Assembly (NCBI RefSeq): GCF_000186885.1
Contig: NC_014972.1
Coordinates: 1,920,001-1,952,000, forward strand
DNA length: 32,000 bases
From: Desulfobulbus propionicus DSM 2032
GTDB taxonomy: Bacteria; Desulfobacterota; Desulfobulbia; Desulfobulbales; Desulfobulbaceae
Reading direction: 5' to 3'
Of this stretch, positions 4,491 through 23,532 are shown in pieces. The notes under the pieces were generated by a model. It was not told the DNA's origin. It made no database searches and saw only the letters and a program-made list of their open reading frames with translations. Made by a program: the position numbers and the translations under genes. The first letter of the stretch is position 1. Each line of letters starts with the position of its first letter.

Positions 4491-4528
4491 GGGGTATGAA
4501 GTCCAACGGAACGAAAACGTACGCTAAG
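4491..4528. repeat. IR-L, 38-bp terminal inverted repeat
   Basis: GGGGTATGAAGTCCAACGGAACGAAAACGTACGCTAAG. It shares the GGGG...GGAACGAAAAC...ACG.TAAG frame of the Tn3 IR and is 36/38 identical to the reverse complement of IR-R. Confidence 0.93.
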
Positions 4529-4596
4529 AATTCAATGGAGATGTTTCGATATCTAAAATCAGCAATTGAATCGAGAAACTGACTCTATCCTGCTAG

Positions 4597-4914: not shown

Positions 4915-4929
4915 ATTTGCCTCGTTCTT

Positions 4930-5310
4930 TCAGCTTCTGAAGGCTGCAATCGTTGCCATACCCAAAATGGTCATGGAGAGCGACCCTATGACATGTATTG
5001 AAATCGCGATTCCGGCCCAAAGGAAACGCCCTTGTTGCAACAAGGTGGTTACTTCGGCGGAAAAGGTGGAAAACGTGGTCAGTCCACCAAGAAAACCGGT
5101 AATAACCATCAAGCGCCATTCCGGAGACAACTGGGGCACTGCCGCAAAGACCGCCAAGGCCACCCCGATCAAATAGCCGCCAAGTAAATTGGCGGCTAGG
5201 GTACCTGGCGGAACAAAGGGAAAAATAGTGTTCAGAGTGCGACCAAGCAGCCACCGCAACACCGCTCCAACTGAGGCGCCTACACTGATTGCAAGTATTG
5301 AGTTGAGCAT
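4930..5310 (-). CDS. crcB: Fluoride ion channel CrcB/Fluc
   Basis: 126-aa, 4-TM protein aligning along its whole length with E. coli CrcB: [34 protein letters not shown]. Confidence 0.9.
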
Positions 5311-5319
5311 AATATTTTT

Positions 5320-6318
5320 TTACGAACAGGCTCCAGCGATAGCAACCGCAACCGCAACAGATGCGCCCACCATGGGATTGTTGCCCATGCCAAGGAAGCC
5401 CATCATTTCAACATGAGCTGGAACTGAGGATGACCCGGCAAATTGCGCATCGGAATGCATTCTGCCCATAGTATCGGTCATTCCGTAGGAAGCCGGTCCG
5501 GCGGCCATGTTGTCGGGGTGCAGGGTGCGGCCGGTGCCGCCGCCAGAAGCCACGGAGAAATACTTCTTGCCCTGTTCAAGACATTCTTTCTTGTACGTCC
5601 CGGCCACTGGATGCTGAAAGCGGGTCGGATTGGTCGAATTACCGGTGATGGACACATCCACCCCTTCAAAGTGGTTGATGGCAACCCCTTCACGAACATC
5701 ATCAGCGCCAAAGCAGCGCACCTTGCCTCGCTCGCCTGTGGAATAGGCAAGCTCGCGGACAACGCTCAGGGTGTCAGCGGCGTAATCGAACTGGGTCTGC
5801 ACATAGGTGAAGCCGTTGATCCGGGAGATGATCTGGGCCGCATCCTTACCCAAACCATTGAGGATCACCCGCAGCGGTTCAGTGCGAGCCTTGTTGGCCG
5901 AACGGGCCAAACCGATCGCGCCCTCGGCGGCGGCAAAAGATTCATGACCAGCGAGGAAGGCAAAACATTTGGTTTCTTCGGAAAGGAGCATGGAGGCCAG
6001 ATTGCCATGGCCGATGCCCACCTTGCGATCCTCGGCCACCGAGCCGGGGATACAGAAGGCCTGCAAACCCTCGCCCAGGGTGCGGGCTATATCCACCGCC
6101 TTGCTTTCCCCTTTTTTGAGGGCAATGGCCGCGCCTAGGGTGTAAGCCCAACAGGCGTTGTCGAAACAGATTGGCTGGATGTTTTTGACGATGGCTGGAA
6201 CATCGACCCCTATGGCCACGCTCATGGCTTTGGCCTCCTCCAGCGAGGCAATACCCCATTGAGCTAGCACCGTGTTGATCTTCTCAATTCTGCGTTCATA
6301 TCCTTCAAAAAAAACCAT
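5320..6318 (-). CDS. GGGtGRT family protein (Pfam PF14057-like, function unknown)
   Basis: 332-aa ORF with the eponymous motif SVASGGGTGRTLHPDN and about the family-typical length of 330 aa. AAGGAGG Shine-Dalgarno overlaps the stop of the upstream gene. Confidence 0.85.
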   Translation of the reverse strand: MVFFEGYERRIEKINTVLAQWGIASLEEAKAMSVAIGVDVPAIVKNIQPICFDNACWAYTLGAAIALKKGESKAVDIARTLGEGLQAFCIPGSVAEDRKVGIGHGNLASMLLSEETKCFAFLAGHESFAAAEGAIGLARSANKARTEPLRVILNGLGKDAAQIISRINGFTYVQTQFDYAADTLSVVRELAYSTGERGKVRCFGADDVREGVAINHFEGVDVSITGNSTNPTRFQHPVAGTYKKECLEQGKKYFSVASGGGTGRTLHPDNMAAGPASYGMTDTMGRMHSDAQFAGSSSVPAHVEMMGFLGMGNNPMVGASVAVAVAIAGACS

Positions 6319-6329
6319 GATCCGCCTCC

Positions 6330-7019
6330 TTATTCGTGCCGGGGATTGATGGTTCGTACCGCCTCGGAGAAGCGGCCGTAGCTGCCGGTGGCCCTGGTGA
6401 GGGCTTCGTCGGCGCCGGTACCCCGATGAATCATCTCCATCATCTTGCCGAGATGGACAAACTCATAGCCGATCACTTCGTCGTTGGCATCGAGGCCGAG
6501 CCGGGTCACATATCCTTCAGCCATATCGAGGTAGCGCACCCCCTTGGCCTTGGTGCCATACATAGTGCCCACCTGGCTGCGCAGCCCCTTGCCCAGGTCC
6601 TCCAGACCGGCGCCGATGGGCAGGCCACCCTCGGAAAAGGCTGTCTGCGAGCGGCCATAGACGATCTGGAGAAAGAGTTCACGCATGGCGGTGTTGATAG
6701 CATCGCAGACCAGATCGGTGTTGAGAGCTTCGAGGATGGTCTTGCCCGGCAGGATCTCGGCCGCCATGGCCGCCGAGTGAGTCATGCCCGAACAGCCGAT
6801 CACCTCGACCAGGGCCTCCTCGATAATGCCCTCCTTGACGTTGAGGGTGAGTTTGCAGGCGCCCTGCTGGGGGGCACACCAGCCGACCCCGTGGGTCAGA
6901 CCGGCGATATCTTTAATCTCTTTGGCCTGGGTCCATCGGCCTTCCTGGGGGATGGCCGCGGGACCGTGATTGGGTCCTTTGGCCACGCAGGTCATCTGTG
7001 CCACTTCTGAAGAGTACAT
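6330..7019 (-). CDS. Divergent NifU/IscU N-terminal-domain-like protein with a C-terminal extension
   Basis: 229-aa ORF. GACKLTLNVKEGIIEEALVEVIGCSGMTHSAAMAAEILPGKTILEAL follows the IscU pattern (CGD..L.l.v, GC..a.ASSS..tE...GKT..EA). AAGGAGA Shine-Dalgarno 5 nt upstream. Confidence 0.6.
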   Translation of the reverse strand: MYSSEVAQMTCVAKGPNHGPAAIPQEGRWTQAKEIKDIAGLTHGVGWCAPQQGACKLTLNVKEGIIEEALVEVIGCSGMTHSAAMAAEILPGKTILEALNTDLVCDAINTAMRELFLQIVYGRSQTAFSEGGLPIGAGLEDLGKGLRSQVGTMYGTKAKGVRYLDMAEGYVTRLGLDANDEVIGYEFVHLGKMMEMIHRGTGADEALTRATGSYGRFSEAVRTINPRHE

Positions 7020-7064
7020 GCCTGTCTCCTTTTGTTGTGAATGAGCAGGTTGTTGCCACCTGCT

Positions 7065-8336
7065 TCATGATTGTTGTGCACCGCCTGCCTGTCGTAAAAC
7101 AAGGGTGCCGGCCAGCATCAGCACAGCTGCCAGGCCAAAGCTGAACACCGGCGATATTGCCGTCCACAGGACGCCGACCACGGTGCTGGAGATAAATTTG
7201 GCAGTGCCGTTGACTGTGCCCAATGCACCCACTGCGGTAGCGAGCAGTTCCTGGCTGACCATTTCGGCGGTCACCGTCGATTCCAGAGCTTCCTGCACCG
7301 CCATATACAAACCAGCAACCAGGAAAATCACTCCCAAGAAGACGATACTGTCGATGCGAAGGGCAAAAGCGGCAGCAGTCAAGATGGCAGTGAGCACACC
7401 TAGCACATATCCGGCGATCAGGGTCGGCATGTGGCCAAAACGGTCGGCAAGGACACCGATGGGAAAGGAGACGACTACCTGGACCACATTGCGCCAAACG
7501 TAGAGAAGACCAGCAACCTGCGCCGCATGAACCACACCCATAGTTTCGGTCAACAGTTGGGTAGCCGCCAGGATCAGCAGGCTATGGGAAAAATCGCCGA
7601 TACCAAAAATACCAACCGCCGCTAAATAGCGCTTGAACCGCAGCGGCAACCCGCGCAGGGTATGAAAAAACCGCAACGCCGGGTTGGGAGAGTGTTCAGG
7701 ATCTCGCACCAGGGTGAAAAATGCGACTACAGCCAGAACACCAGGGATAACCGAGAGCCACAACACAACACGGAAGGCAAACGATCCGTCATGCCCATTC
7801 CATCCTTGAACCCATCCCAGTAGAGCAACGCCCAGCAGGGGACCGAGCACAGCGCCAATGGTATCGGTGGCCCGATGAAAACCAAAAGCCCGACCACGGG
7901 TTTCCGGCTGCACCGCCTGCATGACAATGGCATCGCGGAGTGGGCCACGCAATCCCTTGCCAAACCAGGAGATGATCCTGCCCCAGAGGATAAGGGGCCA
8001 ACCGGCGGCCAAGGCGATCAGAAACTGGCCAATCGGGGTCAGGCCGTAGCCAATCACAACTAGCAACTTGCGGTGCCCGAGTTTGTCGGCAATGAAGCCG
8101 GAGATCATCTTGGTGAAGCTGGCCACGGCATCGGCAATGCCCTCGATCGTCCCCAGAACAGCCGGTGGCAGGCCAAGGACCGCCAGGAACCCCGGCAGGA
8201 TGACCGTGGTGGTTTCATAGCAGAAATCACCCAATGCACTGGTGATGCCAGCACCTATTACGGTGCGATTAAGCCAGCCCTGCGGCTGACCTTGAGATTC
8301 GGTTGGTGCATCCTGGGTATCGATAGATTTTTGCAT
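7065..8336 (-). CDS. MFS transporter (about 12 TM)
   Basis: Highly hydrophobic ORF with an MFS loop 2-3-like motif (GFIADKLGHRKLL). The track ORF starts at a TTG (8348); the ATG at 8336 (MQKSID...) is preferred. Confidence 0.85.
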   Translation of the reverse strand: MQKSIDTQDAPTESQGQPQGWLNRTVIGAGITSALGDFCYETTTVILPGFLAVLGLPPAVLGTIEGIADAVASFTKMISGFIADKLGHRKLLVVIGYGLTPIGQFLIALAAGWPLILWGRIISWFGKGLRGPLRDAIVMQAVQPETRGRAFGFHRATDTIGAVLGPLLGVALLGWVQGWNGHDGSFAFRVVLWLSVIPGVLAVVAFFTLVRDPEHSPNPALRFFHTLRGLPLRFKRYLAAVGIFGIGDFSHSLLILAATQLLTETMGVVHAAQVAGLLYVWRNVVQVVVSFPIGVLADRFGHMPTLIAGYVLGVLTAILTAAAFALRIDSIVFLGVIFLVAGLYMAVQEALESTVTAEMVSQELLATAVGALGTVNGTAKFISSTVVGVLWTAISPVFSFGLAAVLMLAGTLVLRQAGGAQQS

Positions 8337-8356
8337 GGTTTTCCCCAAACATTGCC

Positions 8357-8899
8357 TTAACGATTTTCATCCTGCACTTCGAATACCCGCTGCGCATAGG
8401 CATCCAGCAGGGATTCACAGTCTGCCAACCGTTTCTGGGCCTCTTCGGCGAGATTGGTTCCGTAGAAGTCGAGCTTGCGGATTTTTTCCAGCCAGGAGTG
8501 GAGTTTTTTCAGGTCGACGTCGTTTTCTTCCAACTCAGCGTAGGTAAAGTGGCTGGCGGCGGTTTCCTTGGCGATTTCTGCTTCGAAATCTTTACATTTA
8601 TCAAGGAACTCTTTGTATTCTTCGTCACGGTCTGCCTTGAATCGTGCTACCACTTTGTTTTCCTGAGCCTTGTCTAGGGCCACAGCTTCCAGAATCACTG
8701 CGTCGCCACCCATTTCAATGATCTCATTCTCCAGTATCTTCAATCGTCGGGTGTAGTCATCGGTTTTTGGGAGTAAACAAACACCGTTCTGCAGATAAAC
8801 AGCTCCCATCCCTTTCAGCTTTCGCCAAAGGGAAATACGCTTCTTTGCCGGCTCCGGTGGTACTTTATACGTCAGCAACAACCAATTTTGTGTCTCCAT
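8357..8899 (-). CDS. ChrB N-terminal-domain-like protein (putative regulator/sensor), followed by a coiled coil
   Basis: WLLLTYKVPPEPAKKRISLWRKLKGMGAVYLQNGVCLLP matches the ChrB N-terminal signature (WL.L...lP...s..R...WR.Lk..Ga..L.dGvylLP). The track ORF (to 9001) starts at a TTG; the ATG at 8899 (METQNW) is preferred. The start is uncertain. Confidence 0.7.
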   Translation of the reverse strand: METQNWLLLTYKVPPEPAKKRISLWRKLKGMGAVYLQNGVCLLPKTDDYTRRLKILENEIIEMGGDAVILEAVALDKAQENKVVARFKADRDEEYKEFLDKCKDFEAEIAKETAASHFTYAELEENDVDLKKLHSWLEKIRKLDFYGTNLAEEAQKRLADCESLLDAYAQRVFEVQDENR

Positions 8900-9041
8900 G
8901 CGTCTCAGATTCTTTTTTCGCTTTGCGAGCCTTTTATGGAACAGTACCCGATCAATCGCATCCACACTGTTGGACAGAAACACATCGATCCTAACCGTCA
9001 AGATAGGGTTATCAGTTTCAGGGATTTCTTATCACGTGCTT

Positions 9042-9070
9042 ATTACAATGTAACGGTCGTTACAATTCAA
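9042..9070 (-). promoter_or_regulatory. Candidate sigma70 promoter with an operator palindrome in the spacer (cargo operon)
   Basis: On the minus strand: TTGAAT (9070-9065), a 17-bp spacer, then TGTAAT (9047-9042). The spacer contains the perfect palindrome TGTAACG-AC-CGTTACA (9064-9049) and direct ATTGTAA repeats. Confidence 0.45.
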
Positions 9071-9102
9071 CAGAAATAATAAGGGTTGAGGCTGCGAGAT
9101 AG

Positions 9103-10667
<1,565 letters not shown>

Positions 10668-10707
10668 TTAAAATTGCTCGAAGTTCAGTTTTGATGGGGA
10701 GGGAATC

Positions 10708-13700
10708 ATGCCCGTCGATTTTTTAACCTCGGAACAGAAAGCCTGCTACGGCCAATTTTCTGGGGAACCTAACGAAGTGCAGCTGGCCCGATATTTTCAC
10801 CTGGATGAAGCTGACCTTGCTTTTATCAATAACCGGCGTGGTGATCAAAACCGTTTTGGTGTCGCCTTACAGGTGGGCTGTGTTCGATTTCTAGGAACCT
10901 TCCTCTTCGACCTGTCACGGGTACCTGTCAACGCGCAATGGTTCATTGCCCGACAGCTTGATATCACTGATGTTGGGATACTGTCTAAATATGCTCAAAG
11001 GGAGACCACGCGAAGAGAGCATACTGCTCTCATCCGCAATCAGTATCAATACCGAGAATTCACATGGCCCTGGTCGTTCCGGCTGAACCGCTTACTCTAT
11101 ACACGCAGTTGGATCAGTAACGAGAGACCAAGCCTACTGTTTGACCTGGCCACTGGATGGTTGACTCAAAATAAGATCCTTCTGCCCGGTGCTTCCACAT
11201 TGACACGTTTGATTTCAGAGGTGCGCGAACGAGCTACCAATCGTTTATGGCAACGATTATCGGCGTTGCCTGCCCCAACGCAAATTGCCAAGCTAGAGAC
11301 GTTGTTTCAGATCCCGGAAGGGTCAAGAACTTCTCGTTTTGATCGCTTCCGCAAGGGGCCGGTGACAATCAGTGGTCCCGCCTTCAATGAGGCAGTTGAC
11401 CGTTATCAGGAGCTGAAGACCTTCGGCATGCATGAGCTCGATTTCACAGGTATCCCGCCGGTACGCTTTAAGAACATAGCCCGTCACGCTGGTATGATCT
11501 CTATGCACAAAATCGCTCGCATGCCGGAGAGTAAGCGTACTGCTATTCTGGTTGCCTTCGCCAGAGCGTATGTGACCATCGCCTTCGATGAAGCCCTGGA
11601 CGTGCTGGATTTACTGATTACCGAGATCGCCGGTGAGGCTAAAAAGCTGGGCCAGAAGAAACGGCTACGTACATTGAAGGATTTAGATAAATCTGCGCTG
11701 GCGCTGGCAGAGGTTTGTGCTCTGATACTCAACGAAAGCATGCAGGATGAACTGCTGAGGCCGACTATCTTTGCCAAAATGCCACCTGAAAGACTGGCGG
11801 AATCCATTGCCACTGTCCATGACCTGGCTCGGCCCTACGACGATAACTTCCAAGATGAAATGGTGGAGCAGTATGGCCGGGTCAGGCGTTTCTTGCCGAG
11901 ATTATTGCATGTTATCAAATTTAAAGCAGCTCCTGCGGGGAAATCAACTCTTGAAGCCCATCAGTATTTGGCCGGGTTATTGGAATCACGCAAACAGTTA
12001 TTGGATGAGGCCCCACTGGACATTGTTTCTAATTCCTGGAAACGCATGGTGTTTGATAAAGAAGGGAGAGTAACCAAACGAGGTTATACGCTGTGTTTTC
12101 TTGATAAGTTGCAAGACAGCCTGCGCCGCCGGGACGTCTATGTCGAAAATAGTGATCGTTGGGGTGATCCACGTGCCAAACTACTACAGGGCCAGGAATG
12201 GCAAGCTAACCGAATTCAGGTGTGTCGGTCACTTGGTCATCCTCTGAATCCCCAAGAGGCCATTGATGCTCTGGTGCGCCAACTGGATGATACGTATAAA
12301 CAGGTAGCCAGCAGATTTGATGACAATGCGGTTGAGCTCGACCTGTCCGGCAAACGGCCAACGTTGACGATTACACACTTTGATAAATTGGATGACCCCG
12401 CCAGCCTAACTATCCTCTCACAACAAATTGAGGCCTTGGTTCCCAACGTGGATCTTACAGAGCTGCTACTGGAAATCCATACTCACACCGGCTTCGCTGA
12501 CGAATTTACTCATGTCAGTGAAGCCAATGCTCGCGTCGATGACCTGACTGTCAGCATCTGCGCAGTACTATTGGCGGAGGCTTGCAACATAGGGTTGGAA
12601 CCACTGATCAAGCACCATGTGCCCGCATTGACTCGACACCGTCTGAACTGGGTCAAACAGAATTACCTGCGTGCCGAAACATTGGTAAAGGCAAACGCCA
12701 AACTGGTGGACTATCAATCTACTTTATATCTAGCCAGGAAATGGGGTGGTGGCGAGGTCGCTTCCGCCGACGGAATGCGGTTTGTCACACCGGTCCGCAC
12801 TATTAATGCCGGGCCAAATCGAAAATACTTCGGCTCTAGCCGGGGCATTACCTGGTACAACTTTATCTCTGATCAATTCTCAGGGTTTCATGGTATTGTT
12901 ATCCCTGGAACATTGCGCGATTCCATCTTTGTGCTTGAGGGATTGCTGGAGCAGCAGACCGGTCTGAACCCGGTGGAAATTATGACCGATACCGCCGGTG
13001 CAAGCGATATGGTATTCGGTTTGTTCTGGTTACTTGGTTATCAATTCTCACCGCGCCTTGCTGACGCTGGCGAATCCGTATTCTGGCGCGTGGACAAGAA
13101 TGCCGACTATGGCGTATTAGATGACCTAGCACGTAGTTGCGTCAATACACACAAGATCGAGCAGCATTGGGACGACATGATGCGTATTGCCGGTTCACTC
13201 AAACTTGGTACCGTGCAGGCATCCGAGTTGATCCGATCTCTACTGAAAAGTGATCGTCCTTCCAGCCTGGCGCAAGCCATTATTGAAGCGGGTCGGATCA
13301 ACAAAACTTTGTATCTGCTAAATTACGTGGATGATGAGGACTACCGTCGCCGGATTCTGACGCAGTTGAATCGCGGCGAAGGCCGTCATGCCGTCGCACG
13401 GGCTATTTGTCACGGTCAGCGGGGCGAAATTCGCAAACGGTACCGGGAAGGTCAGGAAGATCAACTTGGCACGCTTGGCTTGGTGACCAACGCTCTGGTG
13501 TTGTGGAATACAATTTATATGCAGGCCGCCCTTGATCATCTAAAAGAACAGGGGAAGGATGTGAAAGAAGAGGATGAAGCCAGATTATCCCCTCTCAGCC
13601 ATAAACATGTGAATATGCTCGGCCATTACTCGTTTACCTTGGCGGAACAAGTACTGAAGGGCCAACTCAGGCCGTTAAAGCAGCCATCTGAACTGGACGG

Positions 13701-13710
13701 ATGGTCTTAG
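10708..13710 (+). CDS. tnpA: Tn3-family DDE transposase TnpA
   Basis: 1000-aa ORF. N-terminus MPVDFLTSEQKACYGQF...RGDQNRFGVALQVGCVRFLG is typical of the Tn3 TnpA DUF4158 region, and a Tn3-type DDE region follows. GGGGAGGG Shine-Dalgarno. The TAG stop (13708-13710) lies inside IR-R, as in Tn3. Confidence 0.95.
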   Translation: MPVDFLTSEQKACYGQFSGEPNEVQLARYFHLDEADLAFINNRRGDQNRFGVALQVGCVRFLGTFLFDLSRVPVNAQWFIARQLDITDVGILSKYAQRETTRREHTALIRNQYQYREFTWPWSFRLNRLLYTRSWISNERPSLLFDLATGWLTQNKILLPGASTLTRLISEVRERATNRLWQRLSALPAPTQIAKLETLFQIPEGSRTSRFDRFRKGPVTISGPAFNEAVDRYQELKTFGMHELDFTGIPPVRFKNIARHAGMISMHKIARMPESKRTAILVAFARAYVTIAFDEALDVLDLLITEIAGEAKKLGQKKRLRTLKDLDKSALALAEVCALILNESMQDELLRPTIFAKMPPERLAESIATVHDLARPYDDNFQDEMVEQYGRVRRFLPRLLHVIKFKAAPAGKSTLEAHQYLAGLLESRKQLLDEAPLDIVSNSWKRMVFDKEGRVTKRGYTLCFLDKLQDSLRRRDVYVENSDRWGDPRAKLLQGQEWQANRIQVCRSLGHPLNPQEAIDALVRQLDDTYKQVASRFDDNAVELDLSGKRPTLTITHFDKLDDPASLTILSQQIEALVPNVDLTELLLEIHTHTGFADEFTHVSEANARVDDLTVSICAVLLAEACNIGLEPLIKHHVPALTRHRLNWVKQNYLRAETLVKANAKLVDYQSTLYLARKWGGGEVASADGMRFVTPVRTINAGPNRKYFGSSRGITWYNFISDQFSGFHGIVIPGTLRDSIFVLEGLLEQQTGLNPVEIMTDTAGASDMVFGLFWLLGYQFSPRLADAGESVFWRVDKNADYGVLDDLARSCVNTHKIEQHWDDMMRIAGSLKLGTVQASELIRSLLKSDRPSSLAQAIIEAGRINKTLYLLNYVDDEDYRRRILTQLNRGEGRHAVARAICHGQRGEIRKRYREGQEDQLGTLGLVTNALVLWNTIYMQAALDHLKEQGKDVKEEDEARLSPLSHKHVNMLGHYSFTLAEQVLKGQLRPLKQPSELDGWS

Positions 13711-13743
13711 CGTACGTTTTCGTTCCATTGGACTTCAAACCCC
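13706..13743. repeat. IR-R, 38-bp terminal inverted repeat
   Basis: The reverse complement, GGGGTTTGAAGTCCAATGGAACGAAAACGTACGCTAAG, differs from IR-L at 2 of 38 positions. Confidence 0.93.
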
Positions 13744-13748
13744 CTAGA
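13744..13748. repeat. Right copy of the 5-bp target-site duplication CTAGA
   Basis: CTAGA immediately outside IR-R, identical to 4486-4490. Confidence 0.9.
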
Positions 13749-13752
13749 CGCC

Positions 13753-13953
13753 TCAGGAGCCACCGTAGCCCACGGTCACCTTGCCGTCGATGACAAGCAC
13801 CGGCACCCTGCGCTGCCCCAGGCTGTGTTGCAGCATTTCCTCCATGCGGCGAGGTTCCGCCTTGACGTCATGATAGATATGATCGGGATGCGCCGCCCGG
13901 GCGCTGGTGGTGTAGGGTCAACCATGTTTTCCATAGATGATGCTCTGGCTCAT
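13753..13953 (-). CDS. Glutaredoxin-like small redox protein with in-frame UGA (putative selenocysteine, U-P-Y-T motif)
   Basis: Hand translation of the minus strand: MSQSIIYGKHG-[TGA 13920-13918]-PYTTSARAAHPDHIYHDVKAEPRRMEEMLQHSLGQRRVPVLVIDGKVTVGYGGS*. The TGA sits exactly where Grx/NrdH proteins have the first Cys of CPYC. The C-terminal GQRRVPVLVIDGKVTVGY is the Grx pattern. GGAGGA Shine-Dalgarno 5 nt before the ATG. Not in the ORF track because of the TGA. Confidence 0.7.
13890..13904 (-). other. Candidate bacterial SECIS hairpin
   Basis: On the mRNA, 13 nt after the UGA: GCGCC-CGGGC-GGCGC, a 5-bp GC stem with a G-containing apical loop. The loop starts 19 nt after the UGA, within the commonly cited spacing range. 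The stem is short, so the call is tentative. Confidence 0.4.
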
Positions 13954-14279
13954 GCTGGTCCTCCATCGGTTGCAATTGCATGCTGCGGAACGCGACATAC
14001 CACAATGTTCATCGAGTCTGAGTGGGCGTGCTTGCCGTCGCCCTCGTGATCTGCGGTGAACCTTTCTTCTTATTCCACTCAAGGGAAGTATTTACAATTG
14101 CAAAAATGACGCGAAAGAGAATGCACACCAAACACGTGATCCATCCAGTTGAAATATATATAATTTTATATTGACAGCACGCCATGGCCGGACGGAAAAA
14201 GACAGCCGCAAGACGATGAGCTCCGACAAAAGATTCCGCAACAGGTTCGGAGTGTGATATAAAATATATCCAAAACCCG

Positions 14280-15725
14280 ATGGCTCACTCACCTCTATTC
14301 AGCGGCATGGCTACGATTCTCATCGTCGATGACGATTTTATTCTCAACGGACTGATTGAAAAGCATCTCAAGCGGGCCGGCCATCAAACCGAACCTGCCC
14401 TGACGGTTGCGCAAGGACTGGCATTGGCCCGCTCCGGCAACTTCGATCTCATCCTTCTCGATGTGCAACTGCCGGACGGCAACAGTCTGGATTTCTTTTC
14501 CGCGTTCTCCGAGGTCGCCTCAGCCCCGGAAATCATCATCATGACCGGCAGCGGTGACCCGGATGGCGCCAAGAAAGCCATTCAATTCGGCGCATGGGGG
14601 TACCTGGAAAAACCCCATGCGGTCCGCGATCTGCTTTTGCCGGTGACCCGGGCCCTGCAGTTTCGAGCCGAAAAGAAAAAAATTGGCGTGTTGCCCGTTG
14701 CCCTCAAAAGAGAAGCCATCATCGGCAGCAGTGCATCGTTGACGGGATGTCTCGATTTCGTCGCCAAGGCGGCGATCGGTGATGCGAGCGTGCTCCTCAC
14801 GGGAGAAACGGGCACCGGCAAGGAAGTCTTTGCCCGGGCCATCCATGACAACTCGCCCAGGGCCTCGCATCCCTTTGTTGTGGTCGACTGCGCGGCCCTG
14901 CCGGAAAATCTGATTGAAAGCACCTTGTTCGGCCATGTCAAGGGATCGTTCACCGGCGCGGAGCGGACAACGAGCGGCTTGGTCAAAATGGCCCACGGCG
15001 GCACCCTGTTTCTGGATGAGGTCGGGGAAATGCCGTTGAGAATCCAGAAAACCTTCCTGCGTGTCCTGCAGGAGCATCGGTTTCGACCCGTTGGCGATTC
15101 CAAGGAGGAATACAGCAACTTTCGCCTCATCGCGGCCACCAACCGCGATCTGGATTCTGCGGTGGACAACGGGGCGTTCCGTGCGGATCTGCTTTTTCGT
15201 TTGCGCTCGCTGGCCCTTCACTTACCGCCGCTGCGAGAGCGGAAACAGGATATCCGCGAATTGACCCTGCATTTTCTCAAGCGCCTGTGCGTGCTCCACA
15301 AGGTGAGCAGCAAAGGCATCGATGACGAGCTCATCGAGTATCTCCTGGCCCACGATTGGCCCGGCAATGTCAGGGAGTTGCAACAGACCATCGAACAGGT
15401 GTTCGTCAACGCCCTCCATTATCCCACCTTGTATGCCTTTCATCTGCCAGAGCATTTTCGCGTACGCAAGACGCTCGCCAGCATGACAATGGCGCCAGCC
15501 GCCGCTCCTCATGCCACGGACATCGATTCCCGGCCGCTTGCTGGCCCGCCGCCCTCGTGGAAAGACCACAAGACGGCTTCGGAATGTCGATACCTCAAAC
15601 ACCTGCTCGCCTTCACCCGGGGGGATGTCCGGGAGGCGTGCCGTGTCTCTGGCCTCTCCCGCTCCAGGTTGTACCAATTGATCAACCAATACAACCTGAC
15701 AAGTCCAGAACGCTCCTCGCCTTGA
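14280..15725 (+). CDS. Sigma54-dependent response regulator (NtrC family: REC, AAA+, Fis-type HTH)
   Basis: Receiver (ILIVDDD...LILLDVQLPDGNS). AAA+ domain with Walker A GETGTGKEVFARAIH, GSFTGA (a GAFTGA variant) and GAFRADLLFRL. C-terminal HTH (REACRVSGLSRSRLYQLI). The start may instead be the ATG at 14307 (MATILIV). Confidence 0.9.
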   Translation: MAHSPLFSGMATILIVDDDFILNGLIEKHLKRAGHQTEPALTVAQGLALARSGNFDLILLDVQLPDGNSLDFFSAFSEVASAPEIIIMTGSGDPDGAKKAIQFGAWGYLEKPHAVRDLLLPVTRALQFRAEKKKIGVLPVALKREAIIGSSASLTGCLDFVAKAAIGDASVLLTGETGTGKEVFARAIHDNSPRASHPFVVVDCAALPENLIESTLFGHVKGSFTGAERTTSGLVKMAHGGTLFLDEVGEMPLRIQKTFLRVLQEHRFRPVGDSKEEYSNFRLIAATNRDLDSAVDNGAFRADLLFRLRSLALHLPPLRERKQDIRELTLHFLKRLCVLHKVSSKGIDDELIEYLLAHDWPGNVRELQQTIEQVFVNALHYPTLYAFHLPEHFRVRKTLASMTMAPAAAPHATDIDSRPLAGPPPSWKDHKTASECRYLKHLLAFTRGDVREACRVSGLSRSRLYQLINQYNLTSPERSSP

Positions 15726-15849: not shown

Positions 15850-18186
15850 TCAACCAGCGGTTCCACGGGACGCGTCAAGCGCATGGCGCACCGCGCGCAG
15901 CAGGTCTCTTGGAGAAACCGGCTTGAACAGAATCTCGACGTGCATGTCGAGCAACTCCCGTTGCTGGATGTTTTCCGGTGCATAGCCACTGATAAAGATC
16001 CCTTTGATGGCGGGCTGCAGGTGTTGAATGGCCTCATACGCCTGCTTGCCGTTCATCTTGGGCATGACCAGATCAAACAGCAGCAGGTCGATTGCCTCCT
16101 TGTGTTCCGTGAAGACACGAACCGCTTCTTCCCCATCCGTTGCCTCGATGACCCCATAGCCGTTTTTTTTCAGGACGGTCGCATACAATTCCCGCACGGT
16201 CGGCTCGTCCTCGGCGAGCAGAATGGTTTCCCGGCCGCCACGCGGTTGTTCTAGGCCGATGGTGTCACGGTGGTCGTGCGGATCGGCGGCGAGCAAGGGG
16301 AGGTAAACCGTCAGGACCGTGCATTTCCCCGGCGTGCTCGTCACCTCGATATGCCCTTGATGCTGCTTGATGATCCCATAGACAACCGCCAGACCGAGCC
16401 CGGTGCCCTTGCCCATTTCCTTGGTGGTGAAAAAGGGATCGAATATCTTGGCCACGGTCTGCGGGTTCATGCCCTTGCCGGTATCGGCCACGGTGATGCG
16501 GGCATACGGTCCAGGGATGCCAAACCCGTGAAGGTCGATGAAATCCTGGTCGATCCTGATCCGTTCGGTGGTGATGGAAAACACTCCGCCTCCAGGCATG
16601 GCGTCCCGGGCATTGGTGGCGAAATTCATCAGTACCTGATCCATCTGATGACTGTCGGCGTGGATGACCAGCGACTCCTTGGCCAGATGGGTCTGGCAGA
16701 GAATGTCCTCGCCAATGATCCTGCGGATGAATTTCTCGATGCGGCCAATGATCTGATTGATATCGACCGCCTCCTTTTGGCTGACCTGCTTGCGGCTGAA
16801 CAGCAGCAGATCCTTGGTGAGGTGCGAGGCCCGCATGCCTGCCTCGATCATGGTTTGCACGCTTTTTCTCGCCGGATGGTCCTCGGCCATGTCCTCCAGC
16901 GCCAGATCCCCATAGCCGAGGATCGCGGACAGGATATTGTTGAAATCATGGGCAATGCCGCCGGCCAGGGTGCCGATGGACTCCATCTTCTGCGCCTGGC
17001 GGAACTGTTCCTCCAATTTTCGGTGGGCGGTGATATCCCGGGCGATTTCAATGATGCTCCCGATTTCGCCGGCCTGGTTGCGCATGGGAATGGCGCGAAT
17101 TTCAAACTCCTGGCCGTTGTGTGCCGGTGAAAGAAAGCCGATCTCGTTGCACTCCGTTGACGCGCAACGCACAATCGGGCAATCGGTGCATTGCTCCGGC
17201 CGGCTCCAGAAGACCTCGTGGCAGTGTCTGCCCTGATAGGAACGGCTATCTTCCGCCAGCTTGAACATTTGCCGAGCGGCCCTGTTCACCCACAGGATGC
17301 GATAGTCGTTGGTGAGGTGGACAATGACATCGGGAACATTGTCGAGCAGGGTCTTGTATTCCTGGGACAGGCGCCGATACTCCTCTTCCTGGTTTTTCAG
17401 CAAGACCTCGGCGCGAATCCGATCGGTGATGTCATGGGCAATGCCGAACAGGCCATTCACCTGACCATCATCGGCGAAGGTCGGCCCCTTGGTGGTGAGA
17501 TAGCAACGTATTTCGCCGCCCACATGAAGCACTTCATCTTCAAAAATATTCACCCGCCCGGAAGCCATGATCATCCTGTCCTGTTCGATGATCTTCTGGG
17601 CGGTTGCCGGTGGAAAGACAACGGTATCGTCATGGCCGATCACCTGTTCGGCCATGACGCCGGCAAAACGGGCGGCTGCGGCATTGAACAGCAGATATTT
17701 ACCCTCGCCGTCCTTGACAAACACCGCATCGGCGGTGCCTTCGAGCACCGAGCGCATCAATTGCTCGTTGCGCACCAGCCGCGCTTCCGCCGTCCGCCGT
17801 TTCCGTTTTTCCCCCGCCTCGTTGAGGCAGCGCTCAATGGCCGGAATCAGGCGGAACAATCGATCCTTGAGGACAAAGTCGGCCAAGCCGCTCTTGAACA
17901 GTTCAACCGCCGTCTCCTCGCCGATGCTGCCGGAAATCAGGATCACCGGCACATCGGGCAAGCGATCTTTGATTTTCGCCAGCGATTGGGCGAAATCGAG
18001 CCCCGGTACCTTGTAGTCGGAGAGCACCACGTCCCAGCCTCCGTGTTCGAGGGCTCTGTGCAGGCCGGCTTCCTCCTGCACCCAGTGCAGATCAGTCTCC
18101 AGTCCGCCGGTACGGAGATGCCGCTTGATCAATAAAAAGTCGGCAGCCTCATCCTCGATCATCAATATGTTCAATGTAGGCATCAT
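15850..18186 (-). CDS. Hybrid sensor histidine kinase: REC, PAS x2-3, HisKA, HATPase, REC
   Basis: N-terminal receiver (LNILMIEDEAADFLL...VVLSDYKVPG), PAS regions, H-box [19 protein letters not shown]-boxes (DTGKGM, GTGLGLAVVYG), C-terminal receiver (ILLAEDE...LLLFDLVMPKMNG). The preferred start is the ATG at 18186, in an ATGA overlap with the upstream stop; the track start at 18195 is a GTG. Confidence 0.9.
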   Translation of the reverse strand: MMPTLNILMIEDEAADFLLIKRHLRTGGLETDLHWVQEEAGLHRALEHGGWDVVLSDYKVPGLDFAQSLAKIKDRLPDVPVILISGSIGEETAVELFKSGLADFVLKDRLFRLIPAIERCLNEAGEKRKRRTAEARLVRNEQLMRSVLEGTADAVFVKDGEGKYLLFNAAAARFAGVMAEQVIGHDDTVVFPPATAQKIIEQDRMIMASGRVNIFEDEVLHVGGEIRCYLTTKGPTFADDGQVNGLFGIAHDITDRIRAEVLLKNQEEEYRRLSQEYKTLLDNVPDVIVHLTNDYRILWVNRAARQMFKLAEDSRSYQGRHCHEVFWSRPEQCTDCPIVRCASTECNEIGFLSPAHNGQEFEIRAIPMRNQAGEIGSIIEIARDITAHRKLEEQFRQAQKMESIGTLAGGIAHDFNNILSAILGYGDLALEDMAEDHPARKSVQTMIEAGMRASHLTKDLLLFSRKQVSQKEAVDINQIIGRIEKFIRRIIGEDILCQTHLAKESLVIHADSHQMDQVLMNFATNARDAMPGGGVFSITTERIRIDQDFIDLHGFGIPGPYARITVADTGKGMNPQTVAKIFDPFFTTKEMGKGTGLGLAVVYGIIKQHQGHIEVTSTPGKCTVLTVYLPLLAADPHDHRDTIGLEQPRGGRETILLAEDEPTVRELYATVLKKNGYGVIEATDGEEAVRVFTEHKEAIDLLLFDLVMPKMNGKQAYEAIQHLQPAIKGIFISGYAPENIQQRELLDMHVEILFKPVSPRDLLRAVRHALDASRGTAG

Positions 18187-18626
18187 TTCATCCACGGCGG
18201 TTCATTGATAGCCACCCAGTACACCCCCAACCGGGCCACGGTTTCGGCAAACTCGGAAAAGTTGAGCGGTTTGCGGACAAAGCTGTTGGCGCCGTTCTCG
18301 TAGCTCTTCAACCGATCCTTTTCTTCGTCCGATGAGGTGAGGATGACCACCGGCAGCAGCCGGGTTCGCGCATCGGCGCGGATGATCCGGAGCACCTCCA
18401 GGCCGGAAAGCCTCGGCAGGCTGATGTCCAGCAGGACCACGACCGGTAATTCGCGGCATCCTTCCTGCGCAAATTCGCCCTGGTTGAACAGGTAGTCGAC
18501 GGCCTGCTGGCCGTCACGGACCACGTCGATCCGGTTGGCGATCCGGGCCTTGTGCAATGCCCGCAGAATGAGCATCTCATCCTGCGGGTTATCCTCGACA
18601 AGAAGAAGGGTTTTCTCGTTCATCAT
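18183..18626 (-). CDS. Single-domain response regulator (receiver only)
   Basis: MMNEKTLLLVEDNPQDEMLILRAL...VVLLDISLPRLSGLEVL...VVILTSS...NSFVRKP. The preferred start is the ATG at 18626 or 18623 (ATGATG overlapping the upstream TGA, GGAGG just upstream) rather than the track start at 18665. Confidence 0.9.
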   Translation of the reverse strand: MMNEKTLLLVEDNPQDEMLILRALHKARIANRIDVVRDGQQAVDYLFNQGEFAQEGCRELPVVVLLDISLPRLSGLEVLRIIRADARTRLLPVVILTSSDEEKDRLKSYENGANSFVRKPLNFSEFAETVARLGVYWVAINEPPWMK

Positions 18627-21241
18627 TCCTCCATGGTTGACATCTCCCCGGACAGACTGAAACAAAAGGTCGCTCCTTGTCCTTTTTCTCCCCGGGCATG
18701 CAGCCTGCCGCCGTGGCGGTGCACGATCCGTTGCACCGTTGCCAGCCCGATGCCGATGCCGGGGAACTCCTCCTGCCGGTGGAGCCGCTGGAACGGTTGA
18801 AACAATTTGTCGGCATGGGCCGGATCAAATCCAGCCCCATTATCCTCGATGCACATGTACGTCACGTCGCCCTCCTTTCTGGAAAACACCCGGATGATCG
18901 CCTCGTCGCGGCGGCAGGTGTATTTCCAGGCGTTGGCGAGCAGGTTGCGCACCACCACTTCGAGCATGGCCCGGTCGCCGCGGACCAGCAGATTGGGCTC
19001 GATGTGCCAGCGTACCTGGCGCTGGGGTTCCGCCGCAGCCAGGTCTTCCATGATCTGCCGAGCCATTGTGGACAGGTTCACCCGTTGTCGCTGCAATTCG
19101 CCCCGGGTGCTCCGCGACAGGGCCAACAGTCCATCGATCAGCTCCCCCATCTTGCGGCTGCCGATGATGATCTGCTCCAGGTAGACGCGGGCTTCGCCCT
19201 GAAGGAGGTCACCGTAGTCCTCGATCAAGGCCTGGGAAAAGCCGTTCATTGCCCGCAGGGGAGCACGCAGGTCGTGGGAGACGGCATAGGCAAAGCTGTC
19301 CAACTCCCGGTTGGCGGCCGTGAGCTCGGCGGTCCGCTCGGCCACCCGTTGTTCGAGTTCGGCATTGAGCTGGCGAATCTCCATCTCGGCCTCCTTGAAC
19401 CGGGTAATGTCCTCAGAAAAGATCAGGATGCCGCCGATGTCACCGGTGGCAGTATGCCAGGGACGAATTTCCCACCGCTCCCACTGCGTCTGACCGTTGG
19501 CCCGTTCAAAGCGGTCCTCGTCACGATGGAGGATCTCGCCAGCCAGGCCGCGACGGTGCAGCTCTTTCCAATCCGGACCTATTTCAGGAAAAATGTCGTA
19601 GTGGCATTGACCAAGGACAACAGCCTCGCCGATGGAGTAATTATGCAGCCAGCGCCGGCTGACGGCCAGATAGCGCATGTCCCGGTCAAACATGGCCAGG
19701 GCCGCCGGCGCGTGCTCGATGAACAGCGCCAGCCGTTCCTCGCTCTCCCGCAGGGCAGCCAGGACCGCTTCGGCTTTGCCCCGGGCAATGTTGGCGTCCT
19801 GCATCTGGTTGAGTGCCGCGATCCGGCCGTCCCGCTGGCGCTCCAGGGCCTCGGCCAGGGCCCGTTCTGCTTGTTCTTTCTCAGTTATATCAAGAACATA
19901 AGCAATTCGATTGACGGGCCGGCCTTCCTGATCATACAACGCGGTGATATCGATCAATACCGGAAAACGATGTCCCTCCTTGGTGACATGCTCGGTTTGG
20001 AACAAACCATGACTGGTGGAACGCAACGTGGCGACCAAGTCGTTCAAATCTTGTTGTCGGTCTGCCGGGAAGAGGCGCGACAAGGGCATGCCGGTCAGTT
20101 CTTCCCGCCCGTAGCCGCGCTGTCGGGCAAAAGCGGGATTGGCCGCCACGATGGTGTTGGTCTGGGCATCGGCGATCACCAGAGCCAGTTGGGCTTGGTC
20201 AAAGGATTCCGCCCACAGCCGCAAACGGCGTTCCGCCTGGTGGCGATCGGTTTCGTCGAGCAGAATGGTCAACTGCCCTTCCGGCATGAGCGTGGCGAAA
20301 AAGCGAACCAGCCGTTCGGTGCCATCCTTGCATCGCACTCGAAAATCGCCGCCCATGACCGTCTTGTTGTCCGGGCCGAGCCGGCTGAGAGCGGCGTTCC
20401 ACGAGGCCTGCACCTCGGCGCGATACACCGGATCGGGGTAGGCGAGATGCCACCAGTCGTCGACCGTGACGAGCTCTGCCGGAGTATAGCCAAACAGCTG
20501 CTCCATGCGGGCATTGCGGGCGAGAAAGACCTTGGCCTCATTGGTCAAGGTCATCGCAATCGGGGCCGCCTCGAAGAGGGTGCGGAAACGCTCCGCGCTT
20601 TCCTGTAAGGCGGCAAGGGCCTCGTTGAGTTGATGCACACGGAGCCGATCCTTCCGGCGCAGCCGATGGACGGCCCCGCTGACCAGGGAAATGATGAGGC
20701 CGTTGACAATCAGCAGGCTCAATTGGAACAGATCCTGCTCAGCGCCAATGGTGAAACTGCCCGCCGGAGGAATGAGCGCGTAGAGCGTGAGCAGCGTCGA
20801 GACCAGGGTGGCGAAAAGCCCGGGGCCCAAGCCGCCAAACAGGGCGGAAACAATGATCGGCAGGGCGAACATGAACATCAGGGGCCGCTTTTCGATGGGT
20901 ACCGGCAGGAGCAGCCGGAGGCACAGGACCACTCCGGTGAGGGCGGCGGCCAGGATATAGGCCAGCCAGCCAGGCAGGGGATGCGCGGAAACCAGATCGA
21001 ACAGCCCCTCGTCCATCGTTGTTGCCCGAATGTCCGACTCGGCGGCGGGCACGGCATGCAAAACGGAAAACAAGGCCATGCTGGTGACCAGCACGAAAAA
21101 AACACCCTTGGCCCGGGATATCCAGGCGATGGACTGGGAATCGCCCACGGTGGCCAGCAGCTGATCGGAAAGCAGGATCCAGGCGAGCGCCAGCAGCACA
21201 TAGCCGCCGGTGACAACAAGGATATAACGGCGGCGCGTCAT
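18623..21241 (-). CDS. Membrane sensor histidine kinase: DUF4118-like TM domain, PAS x3, HisKA, HATPase
   Basis: N-terminal multi-TM region with a KdpD-type DUF4118 pattern (PLMFMFALPIIVSALFGGLGPGLFATLVS). PAS S-boxes. H-box FAYAVSHDLRAPLRAM. HATPase (NLLANAWKY, EDNGAGFD, GIGIGLATV). Its ATG overlaps the upstream stop (ATGA at 21238-21241). Confidence 0.9.
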   Translation of the reverse strand: MTRRRYILVVTGGYVLLALAWILLSDQLLATVGDSQSIAWISRAKGVFFVLVTSMALFSVLHAVPAAESDIRATTMDEGLFDLVSAHPLPGWLAYILAAALTGVVLCLRLLLPVPIEKRPLMFMFALPIIVSALFGGLGPGLFATLVSTLLTLYALIPPAGSFTIGAEQDLFQLSLLIVNGLIISLVSGAVHRLRRKDRLRVHQLNEALAALQESAERFRTLFEAAPIAMTLTNEAKVFLARNARMEQLFGYTPAELVTVDDWWHLAYPDPVYRAEVQASWNAALSRLGPDNKTVMGGDFRVRCKDGTERLVRFFATLMPEGQLTILLDETDRHQAERRLRLWAESFDQAQLALVIADAQTNTIVAANPAFARQRGYGREELTGMPLSRLFPADRQQDLNDLVATLRSTSHGLFQTEHVTKEGHRFPVLIDITALYDQEGRPVNRIAYVLDITEKEQAERALAEALERQRDGRIAALNQMQDANIARGKAEAVLAALRESEERLALFIEHAPAALAMFDRDMRYLAVSRRWLHNYSIGEAVVLGQCHYDIFPEIGPDWKELHRRGLAGEILHRDEDRFERANGQTQWERWEIRPWHTATGDIGGILIFSEDITRFKEAEMEIRQLNAELEQRVAERTAELTAANRELDSFAYAVSHDLRAPLRAMNGFSQALIEDYGDLLQGEARVYLEQIIIGSRKMGELIDGLLALSRSTRGELQRQRVNLSTMARQIMEDLAAAEPQRQVRWHIEPNLLVRGDRAMLEVVVRNLLANAWKYTCRRDEAIIRVFSRKEGDVTYMCIEDNGAGFDPAHADKLFQPFQRLHRQEEFPGIGIGLATVQRIVHRHGGRLHARGEKGQGATFCFSLSGEMSTMEE

Positions 21242-23532
21242 GGCTCGTCCACCTCGACAAAGGAGAGATCAAAGGGTGGCGGCTGGCCAAGCTGTTCGGA
21301 CAACATGTTGATCTGGCGTTTGAGCTCGATCATTCGCAGTTCACGGCCAACCGAAGCGTGGTTAAACTGTTCTAGTTCCTCGTTGCGGCGCCGCAGTTCT
21401 TCTTCCACCTCCTTGCGCTCGGTGATGTCCTGGACAATGCCGGCCATCCTGCGGCCATCGCCGTCCTCGCCGCCCGCGTGCCGGCCGGCGGCCCAAATCC
21501 AGCGCAGCTGGCCATCCCGGCGCCAGATTCTACATTCGAAACTCCAATTGCCGCCCGTGGCGACCGCCTCCTGGAAGGCGGCGTCGACGTGCTGGCGATC
21601 GTCGGGATGGACATGGTCGAGAAACAGCTCATAGGTCCACTCGGGCAACAGGGCCGCATAGCCGAAGATCTGATCATGACGCAGCGATCGATAGGCGGTG
21701 TGATTGACGAGATCCAGGTCCCAGGCGCCGATCTGGCTGGTTTCCAGGGCAAAGCGGATGCGCTCTTCCCCTTCGTGCAACAGGGTCTGGGTGCGTTTGA
21801 GTTCGGTGATGTCGTTGCCAACGGTGAGAATGCCGGTGACGCGGCCCTGTTCGTCGCGGATCGCTTGATTGGTCCAGGCCATCCAGACACGGCGGCCGTC
21901 GCGGCAGATGTTTTCGTTGGTATTGTGCTGATACCGTTCCGGGGCGGCAATGATGCCACGGACCATGTCCGTCAGATCGGCTCCGTTGGCATCCTCCTTG
22001 GGCACCAGGACACCGATGTGCTGGCCGACGATCTCTTCCTCGCTCCAGCCAAACAACCGTTGGGCAAAGGTATTGATGAAGGTGATGTATCCTTCCCCGG
22101 ACCAATGAATGATGGCGCTGTTGGCGTTCTCCACCAACTGGCGGTAGCGCTGTTCGCTGGCCAGCAGGGCCGCCTCTGCCTCCTTGCGCGCCTGGATGTC
22201 CTCCACCACCGCGACATAGCAGTCTGGAATGCCCTCAATGTTTCGGATCAGGGTGACGCACAGGTTGACCCAGATGGGGGTGCCGTCCTTGCGCAGGTAG
22301 CGTTTTTCCAGGGAGTAGTGTCCGTCCTCGCCGTCGATCAGGCGCCGTTTGGCCAGCAGATCGGCTTCGAGATCATCCGGATGGGTCAGCTGCGGGATGC
22401 CGAGGGCAAGCAGTTCTTCCCGGCTGTAACCGAGAATGGTGCAGAACTGACGGTTTACCCGCAGCCAATGCCCCTCAAGCGTGACCAGGGCGATGCCGAC
22501 CGCGGCCTGCTCGAAGGTGGCATCGAAGCGACTTTCGCTCAAGCGAAGATGCTCGGCTTGTTGGGTGAGCGATTGTTGCACCGTGGCGATCTCGCGAATC
22601 GTGATGGACGAATGACCGGTTCCGTTCGCTCGAGTGAGCGCGGTGATCTGTCGGGTCAAACAACGACCGGCCATGGTGCCGCCAAGCAGGCTGGCGGCGA
22701 TGGCCACCGTCAGGGCCAAGGCCAAGCCAATGCCGGTGGTCGCTATGGGTGCCCAATAGACGGTGCGCGGAATTTCCAGAACCACCGACCAGGGGGAGGT
22801 GGTCAATCTGGCCGTAAACCGTCCCATGCTCTCGATATCGCGCCTGGCATCGAAAGAGGAAGGCGCCCGGCGGGCAATGACATCCCCGCGGCCATCCACC
22901 AGTGACAGCGCCCATGTGTTGGGAAACACGACCTGGTCGAGCCGTTCCTGAAACTGTCGGGTGGCAATGGTGGTCAGCAGGATGTGGGTGACCGTGCCGG
23001 CACGGATTCCCGGCACGGCGATGGCCACCAACGGTTCCTTGGCGACCGGTCCCAAAAAGGTGTCGCTCACTGCCGGCCGCCTGGTGGCGAGGGCCGTCGG
23101 CGCGGCGGCCTGTCCCTGGAAACGCGGCAGCGGCGGCAGGGCGGCGCCCAGGGGGGTGCGGGTGTTGAACAGCATCGGCATGGGATCGCCAAGGCCGGCA
23201 AGGATGACATGGCTGCCAAAGCGTTCCTTGTATCCGAGCGCCTGGGCGTACAAGTCCGGCCAGCGTTGCGGATCGTCGGCCAGGGGCGAGGCCGCCAACA
23301 GATGGAGCGCCCCGATCCGGGCGTCCAAATGGTAATCGATGGCCGTGGCCAGATTTTCGGCGATGGTGGCCGCCTGGCGCCGCATTTCCGCTTGTTTGTC
23401 GAGCACATCGTCAACGGCCAGCCAACCGGCCGTGAGGACCAGCGGCAGGATGGTCAGCAGGAGCAATCCAGTGAGAAAGGTGGACAATGGGCGTTGCGTC
23501 ATGCGATCTCTTCTGCGTTTCCTGCGGCCCAT
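21238..23532 (-). CDS. Membrane Cache-like/PAS multi-domain sensor without a kinase or output domain
   Basis: 764 aa. TM1 (LLLLTILPLVLTAGWLAV), a periplasmic region of about 250 aa, TM2 (IGLALALTVAIAASLLGG), then several PAS domains. Ends in a coiled-coil segment (EELRRRNEELEQFNHASVGRELRMIELKRQINML) with no H-box or ATPase motifs. Confidence 0.8.
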   Translation of the reverse strand: MGRRKRRRDRMTQRPLSTFLTGLLLLTILPLVLTAGWLAVDDVLDKQAEMRRQAATIAENLATAIDYHLDARIGALHLLAASPLADDPQRWPDLYAQALGYKERFGSHVILAGLGDPMPMLFNTRTPLGAALPPLPRFQGQAAAPTALATRRPAVSDTFLGPVAKEPLVAIAVPGIRAGTVTHILLTTIATRQFQERLDQVVFPNTWALSLVDGRGDVIARRAPSSFDARRDIESMGRFTARLTTSPWSVVLEIPRTVYWAPIATTGIGLALALTVAIAASLLGGTMAGRCLTRQITALTRANGTGHSSITIREIATVQQSLTQQAEHLRLSESRFDATFEQAAVGIALVTLEGHWLRVNRQFCTILGYSREELLALGIPQLTHPDDLEADLLAKRRLIDGEDGHYSLEKRYLRKDGTPIWVNLCVTLIRNIEGIPDCYVAVVEDIQARKEAEAALLASEQRYRQLVENANSAIIHWSGEGYITFINTFAQRLFGWSEEEIVGQHIGVLVPKEDANGADLTDMVRGIIAAPERYQHNTNENICRDGRRVWMAWTNQAIRDEQGRVTGILTVGNDITELKRTQTLLHEGEERIRFALETSQIGAWDLDLVNHTAYRSLRHDQIFGYAALLPEWTYELFLDHVHPDDRQHVDAAFQEAVATGGNWSFECRIWRRDGQLRWIWAAGRHAGGEDGDGRRMAGIVQDITERKEVEEELRRRNEELEQFNHASVGRELRMIELKRQINMLSEQLGQPPPFDLSFVEVDEP

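Follow-up and report, generated by a model that had tools for sequence, protein, structure and literature searches.

The minus strand of the window that we analyzed, a stretch of 32,000 nucleotides from Desulfobulbus propionicus DSM 2032, very probably carries the gene of a glutaredoxin (Grx)-like selenoprotein with two UGA-encoded selenocysteines (Sec), the second SECIS of which has been removed here by a transposon. The coding sequence (13744-13953, minus strand) comprises 69 codons plus TAG, with the layout M1...U12...U67-G-V-stop, and is assigned by its profile match to the NCBIfam family NF041114. As a type, the gene adds nothing new, for NCBIfam already has a curated family for it and selenoproteome reviews list it. 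The sole unusual element is the transposon that clips off the second SECIS.

Gene model and family assignment

A Shine-Dalgarno sequence, GGAGGA, occupies positions 13964-13959 of the minus strand and is separated by a 5-nt spacer from an ATG start codon at 13953-13951. The frame reaches a TGA at 13920-13918, 11 codons on, behind MSQSIIYGKHG. Both the GGAGGA-ATG start and the TGA had been described in an earlier, sequence-only reading of this DNA and were borne out on the minus strand. Reading through the TGA gave PYTTSARAAHPDHIYHDVKAEPRRMEEMLQHSLGQRRVPVLVIDGKVTVGYGGS, which ends at a second TGA (13755-13753). The sequence-only reading had taken this codon for the end of the gene, at 13753, and of a 66-residue Grx-like protein. 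However, the supposed stop continues with GGC GTC TAG, so that the coding sequence passes the second TGA and ends at the TAG at 13746-13744. The Grx-like character of the read-through product was upheld by its G-U-P-Y-T motif and its match to Pfam Glutaredoxin, but the length was not: the second TGA is assigned to Sec, and the native form has 69 predicted residues.

The listed open reading frames (ORFs) yield only fragments of this gene, namely, a 30-aa ORF that starts with ATG (13753-13845) and a 54-aa ORF that starts with TTG and ends at the first TGA. On an identical locus, a metagenome gene caller called the 30-aa piece alone. Standard ORF and gene callers shrink the gene to this 30-residue fragment, and even a careful reading caught just the first of its two Sec codons. 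The earlier claim that only a fragment would be made without recoding was correct in kind, but the ATG ORF has 30 aa and not 34 aa. Likewise, the claim of a hidden gene was justified insofar as the gene is real and missed by gene callers, but its type had already been catalogued as NF041114. As for the genetic code, TGA is the commonest stop among the ordinary genes of the window (14 of 24) and therefore is not globally reassigned, which ruled out codes 4 and 25.

The 69-residue product, with both TGA codons read as Sec/Cys, scored 105.3 bits against NF041114 (cut-off, 72) and covered positions 2 to 70 of the 70-position profile. The 66-residue form, with the first TGA read as Cys, scored 96.3 bits, and its alignment stopped at profile position 67 of 70; three positions found no match because GGC GTC TAG continues past the supposed stop. 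The Cys-substituted 66-residue product also matched Pfam Glutaredoxin (PF00462) with an E value of 2.8e-8. The active-site motif [U/C]-P-[Y/F]-T is present as G-U-P-Y-T, and the U-X-X-star tail is present as TGA GGC GTC TAG (13755-13744). We found neither the CPYC, CGFS, or CVQC motif nor the C-terminal helix of classical glutaredoxins and NrdH, the motif being U-P-Y-T, and the scores with all Grx NCBIfam equivalog models were far under the cut-offs (for the 69-residue product, 26.6 versus 90 for TIGR02181 and 28.3 versus 88.55 for TIGR02196). On the strength of these matches, we assign the gene to a known family, NF041114 or "UXX-star selenoprotein family 1," and not to an undescribed gene type. 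Since this family is curated and reviewed, a current annotation pipeline would name the gene.

The name "UXX-star" evidently stands for Sec, two residues, and then a stop, and the paper cited for the UXX-star families is one by Haft and Tolstoy from 2025. Zhang and co-workers list the family in a review table as "Distant Grx-like protein 1," give its motif as UxxT, and add the figure 2, taken here to mean two Sec residues; they credit the family to a 2008 metagenome study and remark that its Sec residues may serve as metal ligands. A 2022 review again lists the Distant Grx-like protein 1 family.

The window gene shares with UXX-star family 1 the full-length profile match, the [U/C]-P-[Y/F]-T motif, the G-G-[S/T]-U-X-X-stop tail, a length of ∼70 residues, and a coding SECIS past the first UGA. 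Unlike two transposon-free alleles found on metagenome contigs (L001 and L002), the window copy has no 3'UTR SECIS, because a Tn3-family element is inserted at its stop codon. With E. coli Grx1 and Grx3 (CPYC) and the Sec-Grx of Clostridium oremlandii (UxxC), the window protein has in common Pfam PF00462, the column of the nucleophile, and the V-P (cis-Pro) and GG motifs, but it carries Thr in place of the resolving Cys and a second Sec on the tail. In contrast to E. coli Grx1, it ends 3 residues past the GG turn, without the C-terminal helix, and the alignment of the two proteins ends at residue 72 of 85. The HUGP/GUXX-star fusion (NF045501) and UXX-star families 2 and 3 also combine a Grx-like module with a C-terminal U-X-X-stop, and the match of the window protein to NF045501 falls in the C-terminal part of that model (positions 166 to 236). 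However, the window protein scores far below the cut-offs of these three models (39.9 versus 325, 34 versus 100, and 32.5 versus 97, respectively) and lacks the C-GCAxxG-C-C domain that is fused in NF045501.

Conservation of the two Sec sites and of their hairpins

Homologous loci were collected in one scan of GTDB species representatives, which returned 241 relatives. We kept 80 loci, each from a different GTDB species, and 79 of these are complete. Because the retrieval pattern lies upstream of the tail, the counts made on the tail are free of selection for it. The codon at the first site was TGA in 62 of the 79 complete loci, TGC or TGT in 16, and TAA in 1, and the motifs at this site included uPYT (51 homologues), CPYT (15), and uPFT (8). 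In the Cys-containing homologues P0001, P0002, and P0004, CPYT aligned to the first UGA. An alignment with E. coli Grx1 likewise paired the nucleophile of CPYC, Cys11 (aligned as "gcpy"), with the column of the first TGA, which corresponds to U12 of G-U-P-Y-T (13918-13920, minus strand). The reading frame was kept on both sides of this TGA in the 80 homologous loci. Thus, the TGA does stand at the catalytic Cys position, as first proposed from the sequence, and the two checks suggested along with that proposal, a Cys or Sec in the orthologous column and a frame conserved across the TGA, both came out in its favor. Two loci had oddities around this site: in L006 (about 3001-3204), the first Sec column holds TAA, and L048 (about 667-864) contains an extra in-frame TGA where I-Y-G-K has its Gly. 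Either locus may be a pseudogene or reflect an assembly error in its metagenome-assembled genome (MAG).

In bacteria, SelB binds a hairpin that follows the UGA on its 3' side at a set distance. The hairpin that had been pointed out past the first TGA lies within the coding region at 13904-13890 (minus strand) and has the sequence GCGCC-CGGGC-GGCGC; its stem starts 13 nt and its apical loop 18 nt after the UGA. The fold has a predicted energy of -9.4 kcal/mol, with a z score of -0.8 versus shuffles, and so is not distinguishable on a single sequence; similarly, single-sequence folding of 13850-13925 did no better than shuffles (z = +1.17). The evidence came from the comparison of homologues. 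With a 5-nt loop fixed at +21 to +25, Sec-form genes showed a mean of 4.07 consecutive pairs versus 0.94 for Cys-form genes. When the best stem of each Sec-form gene was taken, the mean was 4.90, above every one of 500 resamplings of synonymous codons (4.10 ± 0.14; maximum, 4.49). Across the family, the coding hairpin is tied to the Sec forms and absent from the Cys forms, which supports the SECIS-like element proposed earlier. From the SelB/SECIS mechanism and these comparative data, U12 would be decoded via this small hairpin within the coding region. Rfam searches returned no SECIS family, either in the whole window at the gathering score or in 13650-14000 at E values of up to 10, where a chance match to UPD-PKib was the only hit; Rfam appears to lack a usable model for bacterial SECIS elements of this kind.

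We considered whether the gene might be a dead relic that is not recoded, in an organism unable to insert Sec, so that translation would stop after 11 residues. Such a fate could be argued from the TAA of L006 and from the transposon that has already struck the locus, but it is very improbable given the state of the gene: the window, L001, and L002, which come from independent assemblies, keep the frame, both TGA codons, and the coding hairpin, and only one conservative and one synonymous change distinguish the three copies. Moreover, the start codon and the Shine-Dalgarno sequence are intact, and the full-length score with NF041114 is well over the cut-off.

The second site was even more uniform. 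The codon that follows G-[YF]-G-G-[TSAN] was TGA in 79 of 79 complete loci, and no Cys form was seen at this site among them. The two codons past this TGA encode GV in 53 loci, EV in 9, and AV in 5, other pairs being rarer, and the terminal stop is TGA in 47, TAA in 18, and TAG in 14. The two codons of the tail vary in their third positions and yet keep their amino acids, the signature of translated sequence. P0001, the closest Cys-form relative (69% identical), has the tail TGA-GGT-GTT-TAA followed by a hairpin. In the window, the second Sec codon (13753-13755, minus strand; U67) is followed by GGC GTC TAG, and since TGA-X-X-stop recurs in 79 of 79 loci as a Sec codon ahead of two sense codons and a stop, we predict that the native protein has 69 residues with two Sec and is not a 66-residue monoselenol. 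In the 47 members with a terminal UGA, this stop codon lies 6 nt past the Sec UGA and before the same hairpin. Two UGA codons only two codons apart would then be read differently, one as Sec and the other as stop, which suggests tight spacing rules for the SECIS.

Only six coding bases remain past U67, and the hairpin that serves it would therefore have to sit in the 3'UTR. In 78 homologous loci, the 3'UTR hairpin had a median stem of 7 bp, and the stem reached at least 6 bp in 88% of cases versus 37% of shuffles. Its apical loop contained GG or GU in 72 of 78 loci, GGUC being the commonest loop, with GGC, GUU, and GGU also occurring, and it started 15 to 23 nt past the UGA in 74 of 78. Within 19 ungapped segments, the inner five pairs were always paired, using CG, GC, UA, and AU, although the percentage paired is biased because this subset was selected for pairing. 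The covariation score of the subset was 0.795, versus 0.22 for shuffles and at most 0.28 when the segments were slid. An alignment of 57 3'UTR segments with MAFFT and RNAalifold recovered only 4 pairs, since differences in loop length and spacing shift the register. A covariance model built on the 19 ungapped segments (R1), which has a low information content, gave 13.2 bits at intact sites and 11.7 bits at the clipped site of the window, where the score comes from the linear UGA-GGN-GUN-stop part alone; the model thus was too weak to tell the two kinds of site apart, and we do not count it as evidence. The SelB/SECIS mechanism and the comparative data point to U67 being decoded via the 3'UTR hairpin just past the stop codon.

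These results bear on the earlier proposal that the protein is natively a single-Sec monoselenol (U-x-x-T) of 66 residues ending at the TGA at 13755-13753. The frame does meet a TGA after Ser66, the product of the transposon-bearing copy is probably of that length, and the 96.3 bits obtained without the tail pass the cut-off of NF041114. Yet including the three additional residues, which the profile spans, raises the score by 9 bits, and two Sec are indicated both by the name of the family and, as we read it, by its listing in the literature. Furthermore, the TGA-X-X-stop conserved in 79 of 79 loci, the amino acid-like conservation of the two codons that follow this TGA, and the conserved hairpin directly behind this arrangement speak against such a design, which we judge highly unlikely. 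With two Sec in the native design, the description as a monothiol-type selenol protein does not apply to the native form.

For the native two-Sec protein, the fold alignment places the chain end right past the conserved GG turn that borders the glutaredoxin active site, and with the chain ending there, the tail selenol can probably reach U12. Thr stands where the resolving Cys is usual, and the tail selenol would be the likely partner of U12. U12 and U67 thus probably work together, forming either a diselenide redox couple or a ligand site made up of two selenolates. The Gly-Cys-Sec-Gly tail of mammalian thioredoxin reductase offers an analogy, not a homology: its Sec is set two or three residues before the C-terminus, in a flexible tail that moves to and from a buried redox center, and its SECIS must lie in the 3'UTR. 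That enzyme differs from the UXX-star proteins in its fold and in its eukaryotic decoding system.

A Tn3-family transposon at the stop codon

A Tn3-family transposon of 9,253 bp occupies 4491-13743 of the window, as recognized by its terminal inverted repeats, its Pfam DDE_Tnp_Tn3 and Resolvase matches, and a shift in G+C content (52% in the element versus 60% in the host DNA). The inverted repeats, at 4491-4529 and 13705-13743, are 39 nt long and 95% complementary. The element encodes a resolvase (9951-10544, minus strand; Pfam Resolvase) and a transposase (10708-13710, plus strand; Pfam DDE_Tnp_Tn3) and is flanked by a 5-bp target-site duplication, CTAGA, the left copy of which lies at 4486-4490 and the right copy at 13744-13748, where it includes the TAG stop codon of the selenoprotein gene. 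The alleles L001 and L002 have a near-identical locus with no element and a single CTAGA. An identical element was present in another sample with a different flank (L084), and the transposition module shares ∼80% identity with Tn3-family elements from plasmids of Shewanella, Aeromonas, and Stutzerimonas. The passenger region had no match among the PLSDB plasmids at a coverage of 80% or more. The passenger genes encode a DUF190 protein (about 4597-4914, minus strand), CrcB (crcB, 4930-5310), a GGGtGRT protein (5320-6318), a 229-aa protein of no assigned kind (6330-7019), a major facilitator superfamily (MFS) transporter (7065-8348), a ChrB_N protein (8357-9001), and a prenyltransferase-like protein (9103-9954).

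On the gene strand, the junction reads ...GGC G[TC TAG], with the terminal repeat of the transposon directly past the TAG. Because the CTAGA duplication spans this junction, U-G-V-stop was kept intact. The reading frame is untouched, and where the second SECIS belongs there is now the terminal repeat. L001 and L002 have CGG after the TAG and next to it the hairpin GUUCGGC-GGUC-GCCGAAC, directly behind UGA-GGC-GUC-UAG. The counterpart of this hairpin in the window was found on the far side of the transposon (4465-4482, minus strand), so that the stem, which begins 12 nt past the second UGA in the native allele, is 9.26 kb distant from it. As an isolated stem, the hairpin stands out from shuffles (-11.9 kcal/mol; z = -2.8). 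In contrast, the best fold of the 44 nt past the second UGA in the window (-6.7 kcal/mol; z = 0.07) was no better than that of shuffles, and neither a comparable hairpin nor a G-rich apical loop at 15 to 23 nt was found behind this UGA. The missing 3'UTR SECIS is a secondary loss by insertion and not a difference between families.

From what is known of the bacterial SelB mechanism, U12 would still be inserted in the window copy but U67 would not, and the product would end at Ser66. The window copy thus probably yields a 66-residue, one-Sec truncation that is devoid of the most conserved residue of the family. One could also suppose that the insertion is harmless and that the second UGA is still read as Sec, through a structure formed by the transposon end or through loose spacing rules. 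The target duplication preserves U-G-V-TAG exactly, and a weak pairing within the terminal repeat can be drawn (GGGUU/AGUCC, 5 pairs including G-U). Nonetheless, this pairing compares poorly with the 7-bp G+C stem and GGUC loop of the native allele, and with shuffle-like folding and no G-rich loop at the proper distance in the window, we give very little credence to continued decoding of U67. That the allele is a natural and precise knock-out of one SECIS, with the two-Sec frame untouched and the signal for the invariant C-terminal Sec lost, is an interpretation that we hold to be rather unlikely.

Our reading that the transposon removed the second SECIS has consequences for annotation and for biochemistry. 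A mobile element can silence recoding without altering the coding sequence, a kind of lesion that annotation at the protein level does not see. As a pair, the alleles with and without the transposon could help to address the biochemical role of UXX-star proteins. If the transposon-bearing lineage is viable and the gene expressed, the pair would be a ready-made test of the C-terminal selenol, which, if our reading is true, would discriminate between a diselenide partner and a metal ligand for U12 and tell whether a U-x-x-T Grx fold works alone.

Genomic neighborhood

The transposon also parts the selenoprotein gene from a downstream gene for a flavodoxin/FMN reductase-like protein (151 aa; 3939-4394, minus strand), which matched NCBIfam flavodoxin and WrbA-type models, all below the cut-off. 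In the empty-site allele, this gene lies ∼100 nt downstream of the selenoprotein gene, and its counterpart in L001 matched Pfam FMN_red in the same gene order. We infer that the two genes have been uncoupled in the window. The flavodoxin-like neighbor is specific to this organism. When we searched the 80 loci with tblastn of the window neighbors and with an all-against-all clustering of ORFs within 3 kb on each side, we found only lineage-level synteny and no conserved neighbor that would point to a substrate.

Further along, a Cys-form C-GCAxxG-C-C gene (2450-2956, plus strand) matched the N-terminal half of NF045501 (positions 8 to 151; E = 4.6e-11). Some genomes have the C-GCAxxG-C-C and UXX-star families fused; here, ∼1.5 kb would separate the two genes in the native arrangement, and none of the other 80 loci showed them paired. 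Between the C-GCAxxG-C-C and flavodoxin-like genes lies a 290-aa ORF (3023-3895, plus strand), which was called as a gene in L001 and had no match in Pfam or NCBIfam. In another homologous locus (L085, 1786-5905), the Cys-form homologue P0001 is encoded directly past a rubredoxin gene and near those for cytochrome bd oxidase subunits I and II, surroundings that could hint at a role in the handling of oxygen or oxidative stress in anaerobes.

No credible TGA-interrupted gene was found elsewhere in the window. Upstream, a divergent gene for a sigma-54 response regulator (14280-15725) faces the selenoprotein gene, and the 326-bp region common to the two genes contained no sigma-54 promoter. The host DNA on this side is rich in signaling genes: beyond the regulator, it encodes four large histidine kinases or hybrid kinases with multiple PAS domains (15850-27022) and a chemotaxis cluster with CheB, CheD, CheR, CheW, and a methyl-accepting chemotaxis protein (MCP) (26955-31976).
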